From assembly GCA_029260935.1 (NCBI GenBank), contig JAJDCJ010000008.1:3905-67904 (forward strand): a stretch of DNA of 64,000 nt, given 5' to 3'. The notes beneath the pieces are model-generated. The model saw nothing but the letters and a program-made list of their open reading frames with translations, did not search any database and was not told the DNA's origin. This DNA comes from Patescibacteria group bacterium (GTDB lineage: Bacteria > Patescibacteriota > Minisyncoccia > Phycocordibacterales > Phycocordibacteraceae). Shown one piece after another: positions 3 through 57,553 of this stretch. The translations under genes and the position numbers were made by a program. The first letter of the stretch is position 1, and each line of letters starts with the position of its first letter.

Positions 3-3000
3 GGAGGAAACGATTGGGATATTGTTGCGGGATTACCTGGAGCAAATAATACCAACTTCAGCATTTACGATGTTACTGATGCTGCAACTCGTTTGACTAT
101 AGACACTACTGGCAACGTCGGCATTGGCACTACCAGCCCCGGCACGCTCTTTGCCCTTGGCGACACCGGCGCAAACACCATCAACATTTCCCCAACTGCC
201 ACCTCTACGTTCGGAAGCGGTCTCAACATCCGCACTGGCTGTTTTGCGGTAAATGGAACCTGTGTTGGCGGTGGGGGAGGTAGTGGCACCCCAGGGGGCA
301 CAGACGGACAGGTGCAGTACAACAATGGCAGTGCCTTCGGCGGCGCGTCTGCACTTTTCTATGACGACATAAACAATCTCGTTGGCATTGGTACGACGAG
401 TCCTGGATATAAACTTGAAGTGTATGGCACTGGAACCACAGGTGGCATTTTGATTGACGATAGTAGCACCTCGTCTGCCGCTCCACTACTCGAGGTAAAA
501 GGACGACGTTCGGACGCGAATGTTTCGCAATCATTTTCTGCAGGACTGGCACTGGCAGGTTTACGCACTGACGCAACAGTCGGTAGCGCCAAACATCTCG
601 GAACAGTTTATTTCGGCGGTAACCACACCGATGGTGCCGATACAAATCTTCTCTATAGCGCCTCAATTTCCGGTATTTCTGAAGGGACTTTCAGTAACGG
701 AACAACAATGCCAACAGGGCTCGCGTTTTACACTGGCTCAACCGGCACGGCGCTCGGCACCGCAAACCAAACTTTTGGCACAGAACGTCTCCGTATTACT
801 AACGCCGGCAACGTCGGCATCGGGACGACGAGTCCATTGGATACGTTTGATGTTGCAGGAAACATTGGTCTTACCGGTGCGGTAACGCGCCAGATACTAT
901 TGCGTGGTGGAGCAGCGAGTTCTGTGCTTTCTATTGATTTTCCTGAAACGACAGCAACAGAGACAAACCAATTCCGATTGTTTCGTAGCACCACCCAAGC
1001 CGCCGCTTCTGCTCTCCAAATTTACAAAGGTGACAATACCACAAGTGTTCAGACAAACCTCTCTTCATTTGGAAACTCGTACATCAATGCATTAGCAGGC
1101 AACGTCGGCATCGGGACAACAAGTCCGGCAAATAGTTCAAAACTTGGCGTTGAGGGCAGTTTATATTTCACTCAAGGGTTTAAGTACCACGACACAGGAG
1201 TTGTTTCAGCAAGTATCGGCTCTGCGGCTTCAACGGATATCGGGCTTACATTTGACCACCCTACAACTGATTGGAACATTGGTATTGATAACAGTGATAG
1301 TCAGGCATTCAAAATTGCAAATGGTGCCATTGGGGTTGCCGATAAAGTAACTATCACCACCTCCGGCAACGTCGGCATCGGGACAACAAGTCCGTATAAA
1401 AAGCTCTCGGTTGATGGCGATGGAGTGTTTGCGTCTACCGGACCGGTTGAGCTTATACTCCATGCAGATACAGACAATGTTACGGAAACTGACAACCCGC
1501 GCATTATATTCAAACAAGACGGTACGGCTGTTGTTGGTCGGGTCGGGTACAAATCCGGCACAAACTCTTTGGAAATAATAAATGAATTTACTGACAAGCT
1601 TAGTTTAGGAACAAACAATGTCGACCGCCTTACCATAGACTCCGCCGGCAACGTCGGCATCGGTGATACAACTCCTGGAGTTACATTGGATGTAGAAGGA
1701 AATATACGTTCTCAAGGATCACTAGCAGGTCTTATATTCAACGATAGGTCGGCAGGCGCTGCATGGCAGTGGTATGCCTCAGGTGGTACCGCTAGGTTGT
1801 ACAACGGGTCCGATAAGTTTGCTATCGATTCCTCAGGCAACGTCGGGGTCGGCAATACAGCGCCTAATGCTCTTTTGCATATCGGAGCGAATATCAGCAG
1901 TGAGTTAGGTGTATTGGTAGCAAACCAGCAGACAGCACTCGCCACCACGCTCAATGCCAACCAGCCCGTGGCAACATTTTCAGCCGGTAACACCTTGAAT
2001 GATTTCAAAAATACGCTCTATGTTGTTCGGGATACTGCGGCGGGAACAGATTGGACAACGACCAGGTGGCACGATGCAATAAATGTAGACAACTCCTTCC
2101 TTACGCCGAGGACCGACACAAAAGTATGGTGGGAACGCGACCCGAACAACAACATCCAATCATGGGGCAATGCGGCAAGCACCTACCTCACCATCAACGC
2201 AGGCAAAGTCGGGATTGGCACGGTAAGTCCTTCACAAGCACTCATGGTGTCTGGCATCGCATACGCAACTAGTGGGTTTCGCGGTCCGAGTAATGTGACT
2301 GGTGCAACAGTTAGTGATGTCGTCGCATCAGGTTGTGATTTTGAAGGAAGCATGATAACCAGTGGTGGTATTGTTACTACATTCACCTCTGCTTCCAGCT
2401 GTGCAAGCGGGTTTTCAGACGAGCGACTGAAAACAAACATCACGTCGACAGAAGACGGGTACGGCCTTGATGAAATTCTCCAGTTGCAACCGATAACGTA
2501 CAACTGGCTTGGTTCCAGCTTTAGCACAACAACACAGCTCGGGTTTATTGCCCAGGACATTGAGTTAGTGTTCCCTGAACTTATAACGGATTTCGGTACA
2601 ACCACTATTACGCTTCCTGACGGCGCAACCACTACAATTTCACACACGCTCGGGTTGAAGTATGGTGTGTTGACCGTGCCATTAGTGAAAGCAGTACAGG
2701 AACTGTACGCGATGATGGTTGACGTGAAAGAGCAGGTGCTCGCGCTCGTTGACCGCGTTACTGGTGTTGAAAGCAGGGTGGCGAGCTTGGAAGCCGAGAA
2801 CGCACAGCTTACCGCGCGCCTCTCTTTGATCGAATCCGCCCTCGCTTCCGGTACTCTCACTCCAAATATCTTGACGTCCGACGTCAAGATATCGGACGCT
2901 GACACCGAAGCTCCCGTCATTACCATGAACGGCAACAACCCAGCAACCATTGCAGTGGGCGACACCTACGCCGACCTCGGCGCAAGCGTCACCGACAACA

Positions 3001-3401
3001 TTGATCAAAACATCGGCATCCACACCTTTATTAATGACGGGGAAGTGACCACCGTGACGCTCGACACCAGCACCTCTACCACCTACACCATTACCTACCG
3101 CGCCACCGACCAAGCAGGGAACATTGGAGAGGCAACCCGCACCGTGGTTGTTGGTAGAGAAGAAGCACCACTTCCTGAGACAGTCACAGAACCCACCGCA
3201 ACCACGACACCGTCTATCGTAGAGGAAGCGTCAGCACCCACCACACCACCTGTAGTTGTAGAAACGAGTGAAGAAACACCACATGCGTCATCCACACCTG
3301 AGGCACTACCTGCCCCTGTAACTGCCGTTGAAACACCACCTGTTGTAGAGGAAGAGTCAGCACCCACGACACCGCCTTTGGGGGAGGAAGCAGTTAATTA
3401 G
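3..3401 (+). CDS. Giant repeat-containing surface/tail-fibre-like protein, 5'-partial. The reading frame is open from window position 3; the track shows a TTG at 93. It carries about 9 GNVGIGTTSP repeats, then an S74 intramolecular chaperone autoprocessing domain (SDERLKTNI...YNW...GFIAQDIELVFPEL), a coiled coil, an Ig-like (DUF5011-like) module and a Pro/Thr-rich tail.
   Basis: Long ORF with no stop back to the window start in the same frame. Periodic 'xRLTIDxxGNVGIGTTSP' repeats. The motif S-D-E-R-L-K-T-N-I followed by 'LQPITYNW' and 'GFIAQDIELVFPELI' matches the Peptidase_S74/CIMCD consensus from memory. The C-terminal 'APVITMNGNNPATIAVGDTYADLGASVTD' resembles bacterial Ig-like DUF5011. 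Confidence 0.8.
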   Translation, partial: GGNDWDIVAGLPGANNTNFSIYDVTDAATRLTIDTTGNVGIGTTSPGTLFALGDTGANTINISPTATSTFGSGLNIRTGCFAVNGTCVGGGGGSGTPGGTDGQVQYNNGSAFGGASALFYDDINNLVGIGTTSPGYKLEVYGTGTTGGILIDDSSTSSAAPLLEVKGRRSDANVSQSFSAGLALAGLRTDATVGSAKHLGTVYFGGNHTDGADTNLLYSASISGISEGTFSNGTTMPTGLAFYTGSTGTALGTANQTFGTERLRITNAGNVGIGTTSPLDTFDVAGNIGLTGAVTRQILLRGGAASSVLSIDFPETTATETNQFRLFRSTTQAAASALQIYKGDNTTSVQTNLSSFGNSYINALAGNVGIGTTSPANSSKLGVEGSLYFTQGFKYHDTGVVSASIGSAASTDIGLTFDHPTTDWNIGIDNSDSQAFKIANGAIGVADKVTITTSGNVGIGTTSPYKKLSVDGDGVFASTGPVELILHADTDNVTETDNPRIIFKQDGTAVVGRVGYKSGTNSLEIINEFTDKLSLGTNNVDRLTIDSAGNVGIGDTTPGVTLDVEGNIRSQGSLAGLIFNDRSAGAAWQWYASGGTARLYNGSDKFAIDSSGNVGVGNTAPNALLHIGANISSELGVLVANQQTALATTLNANQPVATFSAGNTLNDFKNTLYVVRDTAAGTDWTTTRWHDAINVDNSFLTPRTDTKVWWERDPNNNIQSWGNAASTYLTINAGKVGIGTVSPSQALMVSGIAYATSGFRGPSNVTGATVSDVVASGCDFEGSMITSGGIVTTFTSASSCASGFSDERLKTNITSTEDGYGLDEILQLQPITYNWLGSSFSTTTQLGFIAQDIELVFPELITDFGTTTITLPDGATTTISHTLGLKYGVLTVPLVKAVQELYAMMVDVKEQVLALVDRVTGVESRVASLEAENAQLTARLSLIESALASGTLTPNILTSDVKISDADTEAPVITMNGNNPATIAVGDTYADLGASVTDNIDQNIGIHTFINDGEVTTVTLDTSTSTTYTITYRATDQAGNIGEATRTVVVGREEAPLPETVTEPTATTTPSIVEEASAPTTPPVVVETSEETPHASSTPEALPAPVTAVETPPVVEEESAPTTPPLGEEAVN
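2865..2891. repeat. REP-A palindromic element (atatcttGACGTCCGACGTCaagatat), in-frame inside ORF1 (encodes ...NILTSDVKISD...)
   Basis: Perfect 27-nt palindrome sharing the 13-nt core GACGTC-S-GACGTC with at least 7 other copies in the window. Confidence 0.8.
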
Positions 3402-8887: not shown

Positions 8888-10090
8888 ATGCTCAAAAAAT
8901 TCGCCTCATTCTTTCTCTACAACAACCTTGTGCCGATTATCTTCGGGGTTCTCTTTCTTGGCGCAGGCGCAACATTTGCCGCCTCACCCGAAGCGCGCGA
9001 CGTGGTGTTTAGCGCGCAGGCGGTGGTAGCTTCGGTTGATAATGCATACATCATTTCCGCTGACATCGACGCCTATCCGTTTGACATTCAAATTACAGAC
9101 ATTGCCGAAAGTGACACACACTATTTCATCACCTACACACTGGCAACTATTGATCTTGCAGAAGGGGTATGGCGCGACGTAGTAAAGGCGCGCACGCTTG
9201 AAGTTGAAAAAGCGGTGTTGGCGGGGCGCGACTTGGGTGTGTATGCGGCGCGCCAGCTTTCCGAAACAAGAGATGCCGAACATGCGCGCCTCGTAGAAAC
9301 GCAGAAGATAGAAAAGGACCTAGGCAAGCAACAAAAAATAGTGGCAACGGTGTACGGCGGATTGGTAGGGAGGATGCTTGAACCCAGCGAGGAGGTGTTT
9401 ACAGGATACACACCGGTTGTTTCAGAACCAATTCCTACAGGGGTGGTTGCAGGTGATGGTGGGGGGAGTACAGGTGCGGGCACTGCAGTACCCGCACCTG
9501 ACCCGCGCGCCGCGGAAGCGGCGCGCCTTGCCGCGCTTGAAGCACGCATTTCTTCGCTTGAATCCGCCCTCGCTTCCGGCAGCACCTCTGCCACCCCCAC
9601 TGATGGACGTCGGACGTCCATCAGTGGGGGTGGGGACACCGAAGCTCCCGTCATTACCGTGAACGGCAATAACCCAGCGACCATCAATGTGGGCGACACC
9701 TACGCCGACCTCGGCGCAAGCGTCACCGACAACATTGATCAAAACATCGGCATCCACACCTTTGTTGACGGCAACGAAGTAACTACCGTAGCTTTGGATA
9801 CCAGCACCTCAACCACATACACTATTGTATATAAAGCAACTGACACTTCAGGAAATGTGGGAGAGGCAACACGCACCGTCGTTGTGGGAGGAGCTCAACC
9901 AGGAGCGGAACCACCAACCGTGGTACCTGAAACGCCACCGGCTTCACCTACTGCAACTTCAACACCCGCAACCCCTCCTCCTGAACCTGCCGCAACGTCC
10001 ACCCCTCCGACGAGCCCTCTTCCAGCTGTAGAAACAACTCCACCACCACCCGCAACCATAACCGGCACCACCACGCCAGAATCAATCTAA
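8888..10090 (+). CDS. Secreted protein with a signal peptide, a coiled coil, an Ig-like (DUF5011-like) module and a Pro/Thr-rich tail. The C-terminal cassette is near-identical to that of ORF1.
   Basis: 400 aa. N-terminal hydrophobic 'LVPIIFGVLFLGAGATFA'. The segment 'SLESALASG...DTEAPVITVNGNNPATINVGDTYADLGASVTDNIDQNIGIHTF...EATRTVVVG' shares roughly 90% nucleotide identity with 2830-3160. Confidence 0.75.
   Translation: MLKKFASFFLYNNLVPIIFGVLFLGAGATFAASPEARDVVFSAQAVVASVDNAYIISADIDAYPFDIQITDIAESDTHYFITYTLATIDLAEGVWRDVVKARTLEVEKAVLAGRDLGVYAARQLSETRDAEHARLVETQKIEKDLGKQQKIVATVYGGLVGRMLEPSEEVFTGYTPVVSEPIPTGVVAGDGGGSTGAGTAVPAPDPRAAEAARLAALEARISSLESALASGSTSATPTDGRRTSISGGGDTEAPVITVNGNNPATINVGDTYADLGASVTDNIDQNIGIHTFVDGNEVTTVALDTSTSTTYTIVYKATDTSGNVGEATRTVVVGGAQPGAEPPTVVPETPPASPTATSTPATPPPEPAATSTPPTSPLPAVETTPPPPATITGTTTPESI
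9595..9629. repeat. REP-A palindromic element (ccccactgatgGACGTCGGACGTCcatcagtgggg), in-frame inside CDS 8888-10090
   Basis: Perfect 35-nt palindrome. Same core as the other REP-A copies. Confidence 0.8.
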
Positions 10091-10104: not shown

Positions 10105-10129
10105 TTTGCGGACGTCGGACGTCCGCAAA
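10105..10129. repeat. REP-A palindromic element (tttgcgGACGTCGGACGTCcgcaaa)
   Basis: Perfect palindrome. Intergenic, 3' of RAYT1. Confidence 0.8.
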
Positions 10130-10159
10130 CCTCGCATTTCCGCCCTTCTTCACCCCTCA

Positions 10160-10204
10160 CACCCAAATAATTATGGACGTCGGACGTCCATAATTATTTG
10201 GGTG
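10160..10204. repeat. REP-A palindromic element with long arms (cacccaaataattatgGACGTCGGACGTCcataattatttgggtg)
   Basis: Perfect 45-nt palindrome immediately 3' of the RAYT1 stop. Confidence 0.8.
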
Positions 10205-10215
10205 TCTGTTGTTAT

Positions 10216-10899
10216 TTATTCTAAAGTAACTCCCGCAACCTCATCAACACTAAACTCTTTTAATGTCTTTGAAACTGATTTTTTATACCCTCCTTCACCA
10301 CCAAAAAACTCAAGAAAAAACTTTCGGTCAGTTACCAACGGAAAGTTTTTCTCTCCTAAATAATCAAGGTGACTGCTCCAGCGATACGTGTTCAGAAAAT
10401 CCAACGCCTTTTTCGGGTGTGCGATGCACTGTTTTCGCCATTCCGGCACTTTTAAATCAAGCGGATTAAAGTGAATGTAGTAGGGGATATAAAGGAAGTG
10501 CGCATCACGCTCAATCAGCACCTTCTTATATTTGCCTTGCCACAATGCCCCACTCCGGTCATATTTCTCATTAAAATACTTTGAGTAGCCCCCATTGAGT
10601 TTTTTCATAAAAAGCGAAATACCATTTTCTACAACCGGCGATAACAGCAGGTGATAGTGGTTCGGCATCAAACAGAAAAAATGCACCTGCACCAACCTCT
10701 CCCGGCTCCTCTCATGATAAGTCTGCGGACGTCGGACGTCCGCAGACGGCTCTGTTGCGCGCCGTAATTGATAATAGGGAAGTACATTGCGGGTATCATT
10801 GAATTCATATATATCGTGAATGAACCGCAAATAATCTCTCTCATCAAGAAAAGTAGTGCGTTTATCAACACCTCTGTTGAGTACATGAAAGAAATCCAT
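10216..10899 (-). CDS. REP-associated tyrosine transposase (RAYT; IS200/IS605 TnpA-like HuH Y1 transposase). The track ORF extends to 10995 by reading through the 5' REP; the likely start is the ATG at 10899.
   Basis: HuH motif 'LMPNHYHLLLSP'. C-terminal Y...Q region 'YSKYFNEKYDRSGALWQGKY'. Length about 228 aa. Flanked by palindromes. Confidence 0.8.
   Translation of the reverse strand: MDFFHVLNRGVDKRTTFLDERDYLRFIHDIYEFNDTRNVLPYYQLRRATEPSADVRRPQTYHERSRERLVQVHFFCLMPNHYHLLLSPVVENGISLFMKKLNGGYSKYFNEKYDRSGALWQGKYKKVLIERDAHFLYIPYYIHFNPLDLKVPEWRKQCIAHPKKALDFLNTYRWSSHLDYLGEKNFPLVTDRKFFLEFFGGEGGYKKSVSKTLKEFSVDEVAGVTLE
10721..10747. repeat. REP-A palindromic element (gtctgcgGACGTCGGACGTCcgcagac) inserted in-frame inside the RAYT1 coding sequence (encodes ..PSADVRRPQT..)
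   Basis: 27-nt perfect palindrome. Its length is a multiple of 3 and the ORF continues through it. Confidence 0.8.
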
Positions 10900-10925
10900 A
10901 CGGCAAGTATATCTCTCTCTTACAG

Positions 10926-10952
10926 ATCTGCGGACGTCGGACGTCCGCAGAT
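10926..10952. repeat. REP-A palindromic element (atctgcgGACGTCGGACGTCcgcagat), 5' of RAYT1
   Basis: Perfect palindrome. Confidence 0.8.
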
Positions 10953-22162: not shown

Positions 22163-22368
22163 TCGCTCACATGAACGAATCAGAACCGCGTATCCAGTCG
22201 TTGGCAAAAGAAAAGAAACGGCATTTCTGTAATGAATGTGATTCACACTGCAACTGGGTTATATGCAAGTGCCTCACACGTAATATTAATCGACACAAAA
22301 TACAAGATTTTTATAAATGCCCATGCCGCGGGTGCGAGAGGCACTAAGAGACACCCCACCTTCTGCCC

Positions 22369-22403
22369 CCCCCATTACGGAAGTCTGACTTCCGTAATGG
22401 GGG
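22369..22403. repeat. REP2 palindromic element (cccccATTACGGAAGTCtGACTTCCGTAATggggg)
   Basis: Perfect 35-nt palindrome, one of 4 copies in the window. Confidence 0.8.
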
Positions 22404-22414
22404 CAAGAACCAAT

Positions 22415-22437
22415 ATATGGACGTCCGACGTCCATAT
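22415..22437. repeat. REP-A palindromic element (atatgGACGTCCGACGTCcatat), 12 nt downstream of a REP2 copy
   Basis: Perfect palindrome with the same core. Confidence 0.8.
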
Positions 22438-24270: not shown

Positions 24271-24287
24271 CTACCTCAGTACTCTAT

Positions 24288-24335
24288 TTGTGCAACACTC
24301 GGTGTTGCACAAACCGAGTGTTGCACAAATTTGTT
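24288..24335. repeat. REP-B palindromic cluster 3' of RAYT2 (ttgtGCAACACTCGGTGTTGCacaa, then a second nested copy GTGTTGCACAAA + ccgagtg stem)
   Basis: 25-nt perfect palindrome followed by a direct repeat of GTGTTGCACAAA and a nested 7-bp stem. Confidence 0.7.
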
Positions 24336-24353: not shown

Positions 24354-25007
24354 TTAGTCAATGACAAACGATTCCTTTGCAGGATTTGTTTGTACATATT
24401 CCTTATATGCTTTGGTGTCTTTAAATTGATCCAAGAGTATAGATGTGTCTATGAGCGGGTGAAGTCGAGTGTCTCCCAGGTAGTCGCGATAGCTGGACCA
24501 TGTAAAGGAGTGTTCTTTCCCTCGAACACCTGCAATTTCTCGAGGGTTTTTATGAATGTAGGCCGAGACATGTAGCAACTGCTCATTATTTTCTATATGC
24601 ACAGCTTTAAATGGCCCCTGAAAAAGATGGCCGACATGTTTGTATTTAGTGTTGAAGTACTTAGTATAAGCATTTAAAATACGTTGCATGTAACGCGAGA
24701 TGCCCCCATCTTCCCTCTCACCTACAAGCCAATGTATGTGATTAGGCATAAGTGCAAAGGTAAGTAGTGAAATATATCTTTTTTCTGTAATGACTTTGTA
24801 CGTGTCATCAATAACATTCCAATGTTTGTTAATTCTGAACGAAGTGGCGTGGCGAGAAATATTTTTAAAATCAATTGGAGAAACAAGATGTGTCATCAAA
24901 AATAGGAAGCGGAAGCGATCACTGTCGTCATAGAAAATATCCTGTTTGTTGTTGCCGCGAACCATCAGGTGGTAGTACTCTCCTGGTGCAAAATCAATAT
25001 TCCTCAT
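24354..25007 (-). CDS. Second REP-associated tyrosine transposase (RAYT; IS200/IS605 TnpA-like). The track ORF extends to 25055 through the 5' palindrome; the likely start is the ATG at 25007.
   Basis: HuH motif 'LMPNHIHWLVGE'. 'YYHLMVRGNNKQDIF' N-terminal block. C-terminal 'YIHKNP...WSSYRDY'. Flanked by REP-B palindromes on both sides. Confidence 0.75.
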   Translation of the reverse strand: MRNIDFAPGEYYHLMVRGNNKQDIFYDDSDRFRFLFLMTHLVSPIDFKNISRHATSFRINKHWNVIDDTYKVITEKRYISLLTFALMPNHIHWLVGEREDGGISRYMQRILNAYTKYFNTKYKHVGHLFQGPFKAVHIENNEQLLHVSAYIHKNPREIAGVRGKEHSFTWSSYRDYLGDTRLHPLIDTSILLDQFKDTKAYKEYVQTNPAKESFVID

Positions 25008-25026
25008 ATGTTTAATCCTACCATCG

Positions 25027-25059
25027 TAAAGTGTGCAACACTCGGTGTTGCACACTTTA
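25027..25059. repeat. REP-B palindromic element 5' of RAYT2 (taaagtGTGCAACACTCGGTGTTGCACacttta)
   Basis: Perfect 33-nt palindrome with the same core as 24288-24312. Confidence 0.8.
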
Positions 25060-25113
25060 CCTATATACAGTTGAGGTTTTGATTATGAGGGACGTTGCTT
25101 AAAACGGCTTGCT

Positions 25114-30729: not shown

Positions 30730-30756
30730 GAAATATGGACACGGCGTGTCCATATT
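30730..30756. repeat. REP-like palindrome, variant core (aaatatGGACACGgCGTGTCCatattt)
   Basis: Perfect 27-nt palindrome, intergenic between pheS-like and gyrB. Same ATATGGAC...GTCCATAT arm style as the REP-A copy at 22415. Confidence 0.7.
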
Positions 30757-30887
30757 TTATCAAAGGGGAAAAGTGAAGGAAAAAGAAGAAACATACCACT
30801 AAAAATTACTGAAAAACCACTGTAGAAAACAGAGATTTTTGCTCTATAGAGTGATATAATAAAGGGGCGCACAGAGCGTTATTTTTT

Positions 30888-39565: not shown

Positions 39566-39931
39566 ATGTCACTAGAAAAAAGAAATACACCAGAAAGAAA
39601 TCTACGTACAGGAGTTGAAACGTCTCCTAAGCGCGAGCAGATCACACTCCCCAGATTAGATGCGTCTCCTGTCCACACTACCGCCTTACATGAACCAACC
39701 ACTTCACTTGCAACACACTGGAGAACTCAGCGCCGTAATCCTAAAGCTGGCGAAACCCCATTTAGCAAATCTCCTTTTACTCCAGGTTGGAAAGTAATAG
39801 GAGCTTCGCTCATGACCATTAGTGCTTTCTTGTTAGTGTTTACTTCAGGCCCTGCAGGCCCTGCCGCTTTAGGTTTTATTGTGGGACTCAGTGTAATTTT
39901 TGCAGACCTGTTTGGATGGACTCCAAAATAA
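39566..39931 (+). CDS. Hypothetical small membrane protein
   Basis: 121-aa ORF with a C-terminal TM 'ISAFLLVFTSGPAGPAALGFIVGLSVIF'. Confidence 0.45.
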   Translation: MSLEKRNTPERNLRTGVETSPKREQITLPRLDASPVHTTALHEPTTSLATHWRTQRRNPKAGETPFSKSPFTPGWKVIGASLMTISAFLLVFTSGPAGPAALGFIVGLSVIFADLFGWTPK

Positions 39932-39955: not shown

Positions 39956-39994
39956 CCCCCCCATTACGGAAGTCTGACTTCCGTAATGGGGGGG
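39956..39994. repeat. REP2 palindromic element (7-C/G arms), followed at 40009-40022 by a REP-A core
   Basis: Perfect palindrome ccccccc-ATTACGGAAGTCtGACTTCCGTAAT-ggggggg. Confidence 0.8.
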
Positions 39995-40008
39995 GTTGGG
40001 TCAATGAA

Positions 40009-40022
40009 GGACGTCCGACGTC
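40009..40022. repeat. REP-A core (GGACGTCCGACGTC) with imperfect arms
   Basis: Exact core match; arms tgaag...cttca with a bulge. Confidence 0.6.
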
Positions 40023-40114
40023 GCTATTTACTTCATATACCCTGCTTCAAACAGAGCCCTTGACAAAATACAGTATAGGAGTATACTAGTAGAGTAATAA
40101 TTAAATATAAATAT

Positions 40115-40402
40115 ATGTCACAACCATTTACACGAGAGAATTATTCTGACCGAGGAGTCAACGCATTTTTTGTCCGAACAGCAGTAGGCGCCGTAGTTCC
40201 AGCTGTCGTAGGAGGAGCAGTGGTAGCCGAGAATACGTTTGATTTTTTTGATGAGTTAGATTTTTCAGCAGGAGAGATCTTTGGATTGTCGGTTATTGCA
40301 GCAGTAGTGGGTATGTTTGTAGGAAGTCTCTTAGGCCTTAAACGACAAGATAAGATATATGATGCGGCAGGCACGTATCCTAGTGAAAGTGAGTCTAACT
40401 AG
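40115..40402 (+). CDS. Hypothetical small membrane protein
   Basis: 95-aa ORF with two hydrophobic segments. Confidence 0.45.
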   Translation: MSQPFTRENYSDRGVNAFFVRTAVGAVVPAVVGGAVVAENTFDFFDELDFSAGEIFGLSVIAAVVGMFVGSLLGLKRQDKIYDAAGTYPSESESN

Positions 40403-40420
40403 AGAGTCTCGTTGCTCAAC

Positions 40421-40450
40421 AAAAAAACCACCCTCTCGGTGGTTTTTTTG
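40421..40450. terminator. Bidirectional rho-independent terminator (aaaaaaaCCACCctctcGGTGGttttttt) between convergent genes
   Basis: GC-rich stem flanked by an A-run and a T-run. Confidence 0.7.
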
Positions 40451-40469
40451 TTTTAAGTAAGAAGCGCAC

Positions 40470-42221: not shown

Positions 42222-42279
42222 AATATATAAAATAATAGCACAACCACCTTATATAGTGATATCTTCTCAGTACCCGACC

Positions 42280-42316
42280 CCCCCCATTACGGAAGTCTGA
42301 CTTCCGTAATGGGGGG
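42280..42316. repeat. REP2 palindromic element, followed at 42331-42344 by a degenerate REP-A core (GGACGCCCAACGTC)
   Basis: Perfect palindrome with 6-C/G arms. The downstream 29 nt match the sequence following the 39956 copy. Confidence 0.8.
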
Positions 42317-42664
42317 TAAGAGTCAATGAAGGACGCCCAACGTCACTATGTTTGGAATAACAAGAAATACTGAAAACAGTGTTGGGTTAAAAAACACTCA
42401 GGATTATTCAGGATATGATATAGAGAAGATATGATTATTCCTTCTTTTAGGGAAAAGAGGGCTGGGAAAGAGTCTGATAAAAATTATACTGACCTTACGG
42501 TACTCTCAGCTCTTTCTATTTCGCTCATAACTTCATATGAAGATTTTGAAGACTGGGAAATTGAACGAAGGAACATCTGTTCTGATCAATGTGACAACGC
42601 TGGTTTTCGGACATTCAGTATGGATTGGCTCTTATGTGTCATTCGCTGTATGAGGGGGAATTAA

Positions 42665-52170: not shown

Positions 52171-52310
52171 CGAGGCGCTAGGTGACAGAAAAATTAGGAC
52201 ATCCGATGTCCTAATATGACAAGGCGAGGCGCTAGGTAACAGGTGACACACATAAGAAAAATTAGGACATCCGATGTCCTAATATACCAGAGGCCCGGGC
52301 CTCTGGTATA
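52171..52310. repeat. Intergenic repeat block: a two-unit tandem repeat (gcgaggcgctaggtRacag...aaaaATTAGGACATCcGATGTCCTAATat), each unit with a 23-nt palindrome, followed by a 28-nt perfect palindrome TATACCAGAGGCCCGGGCCTCTGGTATA
   Basis: Palindromes at 52193-52215, 52261-52283 and 52283-52310. Direct repeats at about 52171-52190 and 52223-52243. Confidence 0.75.
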
Positions 52311-53670: not shown

Positions 53671-53794
53671 AATACCCCCCCTCGTAGAGGGGTTTCTAGA
53701 TATATGTTGCTAATCCCCATACTGTCTACACCAGACGTTGATGTTGTGTTTAAAGGGGTACACTAAAAGTGGTTACTAATAATTAATAGATTAT

Positions 53795-54181
53795 ATGGAT
53801 ATTTCATTGTTCCTCGCTCAAGCATTCGGAATATATTTCGTCGTGATGGGTCTCGTCATGTTCAGACGCAATACCATTAGTATGATAATTTCTTCTTTCG
53901 CCGAAAATCGTGCACTGAAGTTTTTCGCAGGTGTTTTTATACTCATACTTGGTATTATTCTCGTGCTTGTGCATAACATCTGGGAAGGACCAGCGTGGCA
54001 GGTGGTTATCACAGTGTTTGCATGGCTTACGTTCATTAAAGGTATTTTCTATCTTCTTGTGCCACAAAATATCTACATGGGGTTGGTTCGCGCACTCAAC
54101 AAATCAAATGTATTCCTTGTAGGAGGTATTGTTGCTGTAGTAATAGGAGTATGGCTTGCCTCAATCGGCTTTGGCTACTAG
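53795..54181 (+). CDS. Small multi-pass membrane protein, paralog of 20362-20751
   Basis: 128 aa. Alignable over its whole length with the 20362 ORF. Confidence 0.6.
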   Translation: MDISLFLAQAFGIYFVVMGLVMFRRNTISMIISSFAENRALKFFAGVFILILGIILVLVHNIWEGPAWQVVITVFAWLTFIKGIFYLLVPQNIYMGLVRALNKSNVFLVGGIVAVVIGVWLASIGFGY

Positions 54182-54210
54182 TTCCGTTTCCCTCAACATG
54201 TTTCTGAAAA

Positions 54211-54242
54211 CACCGGCGCGTCTAAAGAGCGCCGGTGTTTTC
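54211..54242 (+). terminator. Rho-independent terminator (ACACCGGCGC-gtctaaaga-GCGCCGGTGT + TTTT)
   Basis: 10-bp GC-rich stem with a T-run, 30 nt after the stop. Confidence 0.7.
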
Positions 54243-54331
54243 TATCCTTTCTCCAAAATGTTTTCTATTCTTTTCTTCTCACAAAACTGCCAACTCTAAA
54301 AACTATCAAGAGCAGTCTTGTGAATGTGAAA

Positions 54332-54380
54332 GAAACCCCTCCCATTACGGAAGTCTGACTTCCGTAATGGGAGGGGTTTC
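54332..54380. repeat. REP2 palindromic element with extended arms (gaaacccctccc-ATTACGGAAGTCtGACTTCCGTAAT-gggaggggtttc)
   Basis: Perfect 49-nt palindrome between convergent genes. Confidence 0.8.
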
Positions 54381-54555
54381 TCAGCGTTTTATTTCACTGT
54401 GATTTCCACAGTTTTTTCGCTAGGAGTGTCACGCCTTCTCTTTCTTTGTAGCAAAACTTGATATATCAAGTTTTGCTTTAATGTTATTTACTGGAGGCAC
54501 TGGTCGTGAATAAACAAGGTTAAGTTAGAGTAAAAAACATCTATACAAGTAGTTT

Positions 54556-57473: not shown

Positions 57474-57495
57474 TCAAACAAAGAAATTCAGAATT

Positions 57496-57536
57496 AAAAC
57501 GTCAAAACCCCCTACCTAAGGGGGTTTTGACGTTTT
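57496..57536. terminator. Very stable hairpin (AAAACGTCAAAACCCCCT-acct-AAGGGGGTTTTGACGTTTT): bidirectional terminator/attenuator between the KH gene and trmD
   Basis: About 18-bp perfect stem with A/T-run arms. It overlaps the start of the upstream-extended trmD ORF. Confidence 0.55.
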
Positions 57537-57553
57537 ACTGTATATACTGCATT

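Follow-up and report, generated by a model that had tools for sequence, protein, structure and literature searches.

In a 64,000-nt stretch of DNA from a Patescibacteria group bacterium (Minisyncoccia, Phycocordibacterales; GenBank assembly GCA_029260935.1, contig JAJDCJ010000008.1, positions 3,905 to 67,904 of the forward strand; this whole stretch is called the window below), the dispersed hairpin repeat REP2 is probably a hairpin of the repetitive extragenic palindrome (REP) class that belongs with a REP-associated tyrosine transposase (RAYT). The matching RAYT is most likely encoded outside the window or no longer present in the genome, and the doublet that REP2 forms with a second palindrome, REP-A, is best read as a hybrid dimer, a kind of unit already described for REPs. 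The window is bacterial, with ~45% G+C and a coding fraction of ~0.89 (greedy call of open reading frames, ORFs), and its genes include those for DNA polymerase III alpha (dnaE), ThrRS (thrS), RNase R, RF-1/2, L31, S2 and GAPDH.

Four copies of REP2 were identified:

22366..22403, plus strand: REP2 copy 1, C8-ATTAC-GGAAGTC-T-GACTTCC-GTAAT-G5, with a perfect palindrome at 22369-22403 and arms of 17 nt.
39956..39995, plus strand: REP2 copy 2, C7...G8, with a perfect palindrome at 39956-39994 and arms of 19 nt.
42278..42316, plus strand: REP2 copy 3, C8...G6, with a perfect palindrome at 42280-42316 and arms of 18 nt.
54331..54381, plus strand: REP2 copy 4, solo, with perfect arms of 25 nt, a T/A pair (CCCCTCCC/GGGAGGGG) within the clamp, and AGAAA/TTTCT as an extension of the clamp.

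The inner 31 nt, CCCATTACGGAAGTCTGACTTCCGTAATGGG, are identical in all four copies and were not found in shuffled sequence. The 33-mer CCCCATTACGGAAGTCTGACTTCCGTAATGGGG is present without mismatches at 22370-22402, 39959-39991 and 42282-42314 and with 2 mismatches at 54340-54372, and its count was zero in 100 dinucleotide-preserving shuffles. The two mismatches of copy 4 are C>T and G>A, one compensating for the other (CCCCTCCC...GGGAGGGG). A sequence-only reading of the window had described four perfect copies, which holds for the 31-nt core, but over the 33-mer only three copies are perfect and copy 4 is a variant. The same reading had given varying C/G arm lengths of 5, 7 and 6; these are right as paired lengths, but the underlying runs are asymmetric, with C-runs of 8, 7 and 8 nt and G-runs of 5, 8 and 6 nt in copies 1, 2 and 3, respectively. 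As the C- and G-runs are unequal, the clamp was eroded one-sidedly and its variation is not symmetric. Palindrome-correcting template switching, which symmetric clamp variation would have suggested, was dropped for copies 1-3 on the same runs (8/5, 7/8 and 8/6).

The REP2 hairpin is ~41 nt long and very stable: when folded as single-stranded DNA (ssDNA), the REP2 regions reached energies between -24 and -34 kcal/mol (z-scores between -6 and -12). An inverted-repeat finder placed a 1-nt centre in all REP2 palindromes, and because the centre base on the plus strand is T in each, all four copies have the same orientation. The stem opens with the C-run followed by ATTAC, and the flanks of the four copies have no tetranucleotide in common. 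When the window was searched with Rfam at gathering thresholds, only a tRNA-Thr was found and nothing at REP2. Identity with an integron attC site was rejected on anatomy, the palindromes being perfect, free of bulges and too long.

In copies 1-3 a REP-A core was found downstream of REP2, with centre-to-centre distances of 40, 41 and 40 nt:

22415..22437, plus strand: REP-A partner of copy 1, a perfect 23-nt palindrome, ATATGGACGTCCGACGTCCATAT, with the two centres 40 nt apart.
39996..40027, plus strand: spacer, REP-A and tail of copy 2, consisting of the spacer TTGGGTCAATGAA, the degenerate core GGACGTCCGACGTCG at 40009-40023 (1 mismatch) and the tail CTAT.
42317..42349, plus strand: spacer, REP-A and tail of copy 3, consisting of the spacer TAAGAGTCAATGAA, the decayed core GGACGCCCAACGTC at 42331-42344 and the tail ACTAT; this segment is homologous to that of the copy 2 composite.

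Two earlier claims were borne out here, namely that a REP-A core lies close downstream of three of the four copies (at 22415, 40009 and 42331) and that two different palindromes make up a composite unit. Copies 2 and 3 have the spacer GTCAATGAA and the tail CTAT in common, giving a composite of ~72 nt, and the homology between them ends past the tail and upstream of the C-run. From these limits and the common spacer and tail it is concluded that the composite was copied as a unit. The C/G clamp appears to be part of the element, because it travels with the composite in copies 1-3. The spacer of copy 1 has only CAAT in common with the other doublets, and copy 4 stands alone. A dimer-like organization is found in 3/4 REP2 copies, with fixed spacing and with the other family as partner; the perfect palindromes define no head or tail orientation. 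An 81-nt composite gave no match in phage and plasmid collections.

RAYT genes in the window were located by tblastn with the transposase of a related locus on a metagenome contig, L006. Two such genes were found, together with hairpins in and around them:

10216..10896, minus strand: RAYT#1, a Y1 HUH transposase (Pfam PF01797) with a likely start ATG at 10896; cognate of REP-A, not of REP2.
10926-10952, no strand: REP-A hairpin in the 5' flank of RAYT#1, 30-56 nt upstream of the likely start.
10721-10747, no strand: REP-A hairpin inside RAYT#1, in frame.
10159-10205 and 10105-10129, no strand: REP-A hairpins in the 3' flank of RAYT#1.
24354..24998, minus strand: RAYT#2, a divergent Y1 transposase, with nested TGTGCAACAC/GTGTTGCACA palindromes (3-9 nt loops) at 24281-24330 and 25026-25060.

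Both proteins exceed the gathering score of PF01797 (Y1_Tnp), with 40.5 and 45.1 bits versus 23, and both keep the HUH histidines and the one tyrosine that are invariant in an alignment of 23 sequences. A PDB search with the RAYT alignment profile gave no match at E<=0.01. Only GGACGTC hairpins were observed in the RAYT#1 neighbourhood (10105..10952), 0/5 being of the REP2 type, and the palindromes at RAYT#2 are unrelated ones that occur nowhere else in the window. Each of the two RAYT-like genes has its own palindromes and neither is flanked by REP2, in agreement with the earlier statement that no cognate transposase is visible in the window.

Sequence comparison ties hairpins with the REP2 core to RAYT genes in other genomes. 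The pattern TTACGGAAGTCNGACTTCCGTAA was identified in eight metagenome contigs that are otherwise dissimilar to the window; there were no exact matches in GTDB representative genomes, a set that does not contain the source genome or close relatives, and none in viral contigs. On L006, two TTACGGAAGTC[C/G]GACTTCCG hairpins lie upstream of the gene for a 212-aa Y1 transposase, one lies within it and one downstream; the protein is 42% identical to RAYT#1. Relatives of this protein number 2102 at E<=1e-10, nearly all with PF01797; many are named 'REP element-mobilizing transposase RayT' (JGI), and their NCBI taxa are Patescibacteria, Moranbacteria and Parcubacteria. The RAYT of P0002 (loci L091/L092), 70% identical to that of L006, has CCGGAAGTC-S-GACTTCCGG both at its flanks and within the gene. 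Hairpins of the type TTAC/CC-GGAAGTC-S-GACTTCC flank and interrupt the RAYTs of L006, L091/L092, L034, L035 and L040, and GGAAGTC hairpins are also found at the RAYT gene of L028. Relatives of the L006 RAYT at 57-58% identity have other cores (CTGGTT, GGGTT).

Several further features were observed at the GGAAGTC-type RAYT loci. Small genes for GIY-YIG nucleases are found immediately upstream of the RAYT, with an RVT_1 reverse-transcriptase gene nearby and, downstream, tandem hairpin arrays with a 39-nt period (L091 3604-3858 and 902-1147; L092 1773-2027 and 161-1312). GGAAGTC homodimers with centres 54 nt apart and a similar spacer, GGCTT...ATAGGGCTTT, were found at L002 5331-5404 and L006 8329-8402, on two different contigs of one metagenome; this homodimer is a REPIN-like unit conserved between organisms.

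For family-wide statistics, a profile search of GTDB representatives yielded 578 confirmed stretches, of which the best 80 loci, with 81 RAYT genes, were analyzed; perfect palindromes with a 1-nt centre were counted, so that imperfect copies are missed. Perfect G+C-containing hairpins reach 1.28/kb inside or within 300 nt of RAYTs versus 0.17/kb elsewhere in the loci (7.5-fold), and at least one is present at 54/81 RAYT genes. They occupy four sites: the 5' flank, two positions within the gene at ~aa 50-60 and ~aa 150, and the 3' flank. The arm consensus of 126 hairpins is ...T-W-T-S-G-A-N-G-T-Y with C or G as the centre in 89%, and REP2 matches each informative position of the apical consensus G(-6) A(-5) N G(-3) T(-2) Y(-1). 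The sequence of the RAYT evidently covaries with the core of its hairpin: pairwise RAYT identity goes down as core mismatches go up (Spearman rho -0.39; 0/500 label permutations as extreme), and a single apical 6-mer was found in 41/50 RAYT neighbourhoods with at least two hairpins. From this covariation and the uniform neighbourhoods it is concluded that each RAYT has its own hairpin, and that REP2 therefore goes with a clade unrepresented in the window. The centre base was also tried as a marker of orientation relative to RAYT genes, and was given up since no consistent pattern could be observed across the analyzed loci.

Many Patescibacteria RAYT genes carry their own cognate hairpin in frame (10721-10747 in RAYT#1, L006 8610-8632, L091 4158-4176 and ~25 other loci); the sequence of these in-gene hairpins is gene-specific, and of the two preferred positions the one at ~aa 50-60 precedes the HUH motif. 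At L078 (1299-2975) an entire RAYT gene is tandemly duplicated together with its flanking and internal hairpins, the copies being 925 nt apart.

An alternative is that RAYT#1 mobilizes REP2 and REP-A together, as a doublet resembling a bacterial interspersed mosaic element (BIME) or a REPIN, in which case REP2 would be a second REP subfamily of RAYT#1 and no third RAYT would be needed. In E. coli, the Y and Z REPs are served by a single RAYT. All three GGACGTC hairpins of the window that lie away from the neighbourhood of RAYT#1 (gene at 10.2-10.9 kb) are in REP2 doublets, the doublets have fixed spacing and a common spacer, and the inner 21 nt of the copy 1 REP-A are the same as those of the hairpin centred at 10182 beside RAYT#1, except for the centre base (C versus G on the plus strand). 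Several REP subfamilies flanking one gene are common (PMC6006769), and two core types were found at the single RAYT of L074. Nevertheless, REP2-type hairpins are missing from the RAYT#1 neighbourhood, the one-core pattern of the 41/50 neighbourhoods speaks against this alternative, and so does the covariation between clade and core, the nearest relatives of RAYT#1 using ACATC/TCATC-type cores (GGACATC, AGTCATC or AGACATC) and not GGAAGTC. In copies 2 and 3 it is the REP-A halves that are decayed and the REP2 halves that are intact, the reverse of the pattern that mobilization by way of REP-A would predict, and copy 4 is a REP2 without REP-A. Mobilization of REP2 by RAYT#1 is therefore considered unlikely, and a RAYT dedicated to REP2 is preferred.

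The two families are part of a larger set of palindromes. The window contains 16 odd palindromes with arms of at least 8 nt, versus 0-4 in base-composition shuffles, and most of these have the centre GGA-N-N-T-C / N / G-A-N-N-TCC, with the cores GGACGTC (REP-A), GGAAGTC (REP2), GGACATC (52204, 52272) and GGACACG (30744). Altogether, the 64 kb contain two RAYTs along with five or more hairpin families, and REP2 is without a partner in view. The GGACATC hairpin, ATTAGGACATCCGATGTCCTAAT, is an orphan found twice upstream of the gene for glutamate dehydrogenase (52193-52215 and 52261-52283; 68 nt apart), and the orphan GGACACG hairpin, AAATATGGACACGGCGTGTCCATATTT, occurs once (30731-30757); in other metagenome-assembled genomes (MAGs), these two cores flank RAYT genes, e.g. 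at L012, L016, L017, L077 and L045. Perfect REP-A-like palindromes were also observed in frame within two large surface-protein ORFs, at 9591-9633 (43 nt; ORF 8888-10090) and 2866-2892 (27 nt; ORF 93-3401), both located 8-10 residues upstream of a Bact_surface_Ig-like domain.

None of the four REP2 copies lies inside a supported gene, which has a probability of ~1e-4 at ~89% coding. Copies 2, 3 and 4 are located between called ORFs, and the only ORF that copy 1 overlaps is a mechanical one of 86 aa without a Pfam match, so that the earlier description of all copies as intergenic stands, as does their placement at gene ends: each of the four lies downstream of the 3' end of at least one gene. 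Copy 2 starts 24 nt past the stop of ORF 39566-39931. Copy 3 is located between dnaE (minus) and thrS (minus), 56 nt upstream of the thrS start, and copy 4 between two convergent genes, 53795-54181 and that for RNase R, each of which has its own T-tract hairpin. Directly after the copy 2 doublet, a strong, near-consensus promoter-like site was observed at 40060-40087 (TTGACA, 16 nt, TATACT; 11/12); downstream of it lies a 95-aa ORF (40115-40402) that ends at a bidirectional terminator-like hairpin at 40418-40452. Another terminator-like hairpin follows gdh at 53675-53699 and has the sequence CCCCCCCTC-GTA-GAGGGGTTTCT. The 11-mer GAGGGGTTTCT is also present in the outer right arm of copy 4, and because the gdh terminator and the copy 4 arm have it in common, the REP2 core of copy 4 may sit within a former terminator hairpin.

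The positions at gene ends could also be explained if REP2 were a structure in RNA or DNA selected by the host, such as a terminator lacking a T-tract, a stabilizer of mRNA 3' ends or an insulator, that was duplicated by recombination and is not a transposase substrate. The highly stable stems, the perfectly conserved core and the compensatory pair in copy 4 are in line with this, and copy 2 is the sole hairpin between the stop at 39931 and the promoter-like site. REPs of other organisms are reported to be active in 3' untranslated regions. However, a consensus scan identified no T-tract after REP2 on the plus strand in any of the four copies; the sequence-only reading had noted the lack of T-tracts, which is correct for this strand, whereas on the minus strand weak T-rich tails were flagged at just two copies, 2 and 4. 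Ordinary T-tract terminators do occur in this genome, at 40418-40452, at 57495-57537 and, on either side of copy 4, at 54206-54242 and 54396-54412. The orientation of the doublet on the chromosome is constant regardless of gene direction, copy 3 being reversed with respect to transcription. Because the plus strand has no T-tract, terminators are found nearby and the doublet orientation is fixed, a role as terminator is unlikely to be the origin of REP2. Moreover, throughout the phylum this core is associated with RAYT genes. A purely host-selected structure is thus regarded as improbable; a role for the host would be compatible with mobility, and REP2 may also have an effect at the host level, for example in the protection of mRNA 3' ends.

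A dimeric DNA-binding regulator with REP2 as its operator would fit the perfect dyad symmetry and the promoters near some copies (the site at 40060-40087 after copy 2, and thrS 56 nt downstream of copy 3). An operator, though, is far shorter than these perfect 35-51-nt palindromes with their G/C clamps, the neighbouring genes are functionally unrelated, copy 4 lies between convergent genes, and the motif is already explained by the phylum-wide link to RAYTs. An operator function is accordingly very hard to credit.

The assignment of REP2 to the REP class agrees in many respects with what is known from Proteobacteria (E. coli, Pseudomonas, Stenotrophomonas), where REPs, BIMEs and REPINs occur with RAYTs (TnpA_REP) as short extragenic hairpins, the family being specific to the Y1 gene that it flanks (REPtron). 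According to the rule given in the literature, each tnpAREP gene has one REP family (PMC6006769), and several REP types are found per genome, also inside other genes (PMC6006769; PMC3733652). Like the REP2 copies, these REPs lie downstream of genes; they also form dimers, as REP2 may do with REP-A, and hybrid dimers of two REP families have been described (Di Nocera 2013, PMC3733652). Copies inside genes, with the frame kept, are occasionally found as well, including in the tnpAREP gene itself (PMC6006769; PMC3733652). Among the TnpA_Y1 subclasses of Quentin et al. (2018), compared here by description, the atypical subclasses 2.6 and 3 have hairpins without the GT[AG]G consensus adjoining Y1 transposase genes, the 'double-foot' REPs of subclass 2.4 are symmetric, and REP copies occur within tnpA with the frame kept; in Patescibacteria, unlike in those subclasses, the in-gene copies are mostly located before the HUH motif (~aa 50-60) or near aa 150. 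REPs that sit within target palindromes are also known (PMC3733652), such as T. roseum GTAG-23 and A. variabilis GTAG-15 (Di Nocera 2013), and copy 4 resembles these with its core inside the outer palindrome AGAAACCCCTC...GAGGGGTTTCT, although it is a single case. Miniature elements derived from IS200/IS605 are likewise short non-coding units with two distinct hairpins and a presumed ssDNA substrate of a Y1 HUH enzyme; in contrast to these, the REP2 composite has no tnpA/tnpB partner and no conserved target tetranucleotide at its borders, and its hairpins match those flanking RAYTs.

Other differences separate the Patescibacteria hairpins from the proteobacterial REPs. The stems are perfect palindromes with a 1-nt centre rather than imperfect, and the conserved part is apical (G-A-N-G-T-Y / S) while the outer stem is variable. 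RAYTs of other phyla have been described as typically single-copy, and those of Proteobacteria also as vertically inherited and with one REP family each (PMC5581495). Here several occur per MAG: two are present in the 64-kb window, and 7 MAGs among the 80 loci supply two different RAYT loci each, which, together with the L078 duplication, does not fit the single-copy picture.

A number of observations weigh against REP2 being a RAYT-associated REP. The canonical tag of proteobacterial REPs, a GT[AG]G or CGTC tetranucleotide left unpaired at the hairpin foot (PMC6006769; PMC3733652), is missing from REP2, and unlike the RAYTs of Proteobacteria, the window RAYTs score below the cut-off of the NCBIfam RAYT equivalog NF047646 (43-49 bits versus 80). 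Only four copies are present, spread across 32 kb of the window, and neither of the two RAYTs checked there is flanked by REP2. The cores GGAAGTC and GGACGTC of REP2 and REP-A are one base pair apart, which makes cross-recognition by RAYT#1 possible. The centre base T of REP2 is found in only 7/126 family hairpins. The nearest ThrRS relatives are from Patescibacteria, Paceibacterota or Kaiserbacteria MAGs and are 71-74% identical, with a G+C of 58% versus 45%, which makes them too distant for an empty-site comparison; in the one of these relatives whose contigs were analyzed, P0123 (ThrRS 71%; loci L089/L090), no REP hairpins were found.

The reading of REP2 as a REP with its own RAYT suggests the following mechanism. 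REP2 would be acted on in trans by a Y1 (HUH) tyrosine transposase, which would recognize it as folded ssDNA, cut it and re-ligate it elsewhere; such mobility by ssDNA cutting and ligation is proposed by analogy with the family. The copies that survive would be those in safe intergenic sites. The mobilizing enzyme is predicted to be a third RAYT from the L006/P0002-like clade, the users of GGAAGTC hairpins, located outside the window or lost. A REP2 hairpin and a REP-A hairpin, the latter the cognate of RAYT#1, may have come to lie side by side once, after which the ~72-nt composite would have been copied as a unit.

No description of REP/RAYT systems in Patescibacteria was found in a full-text literature search, which was a weak one; a single paper contained both 'REP-associated tyrosine transposase' and 'candidate phyla radiation', and it mentions a KEGG hit in an archaeon. 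A broader proposal can be put forward tentatively, and is more doubtful than the assignment of REP2 itself: Patescibacteria may possess an undescribed, phylum-wide class of RAYT/hairpin systems, with perfect palindromes that lack a GTAG foot and have the apical G-A-N-G-T-Y / S, a hairpin built into the transposase gene, and several RAYT/hairpin pairs per ~1-Mb genome. Hairpins of two such systems would have fused into the REP2/REP-A unit and spread via one transposase, with the other hairpin as passenger.

REP2 is an unusual member of the known REP class and not a new kind of element, and taken individually the finding is modest, as it adds one further REP family and a hybrid dimer of known type. 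However, studies of REPs and RAYTs have been almost confined to Proteobacteria, and the same architecture recurs across hundreds of MAGs of Patescibacteria. Should the class be confirmed, it would provide a larger and more divergent set in which to study how Y1 transposases read hairpins, via the covariation between apical stem and protein. It would also allow testing whether streamlined genomes tolerate or exploit such repeats, and it could supply practical markers of assembly breaks and for strain typing in uncultured Patescibacteria.

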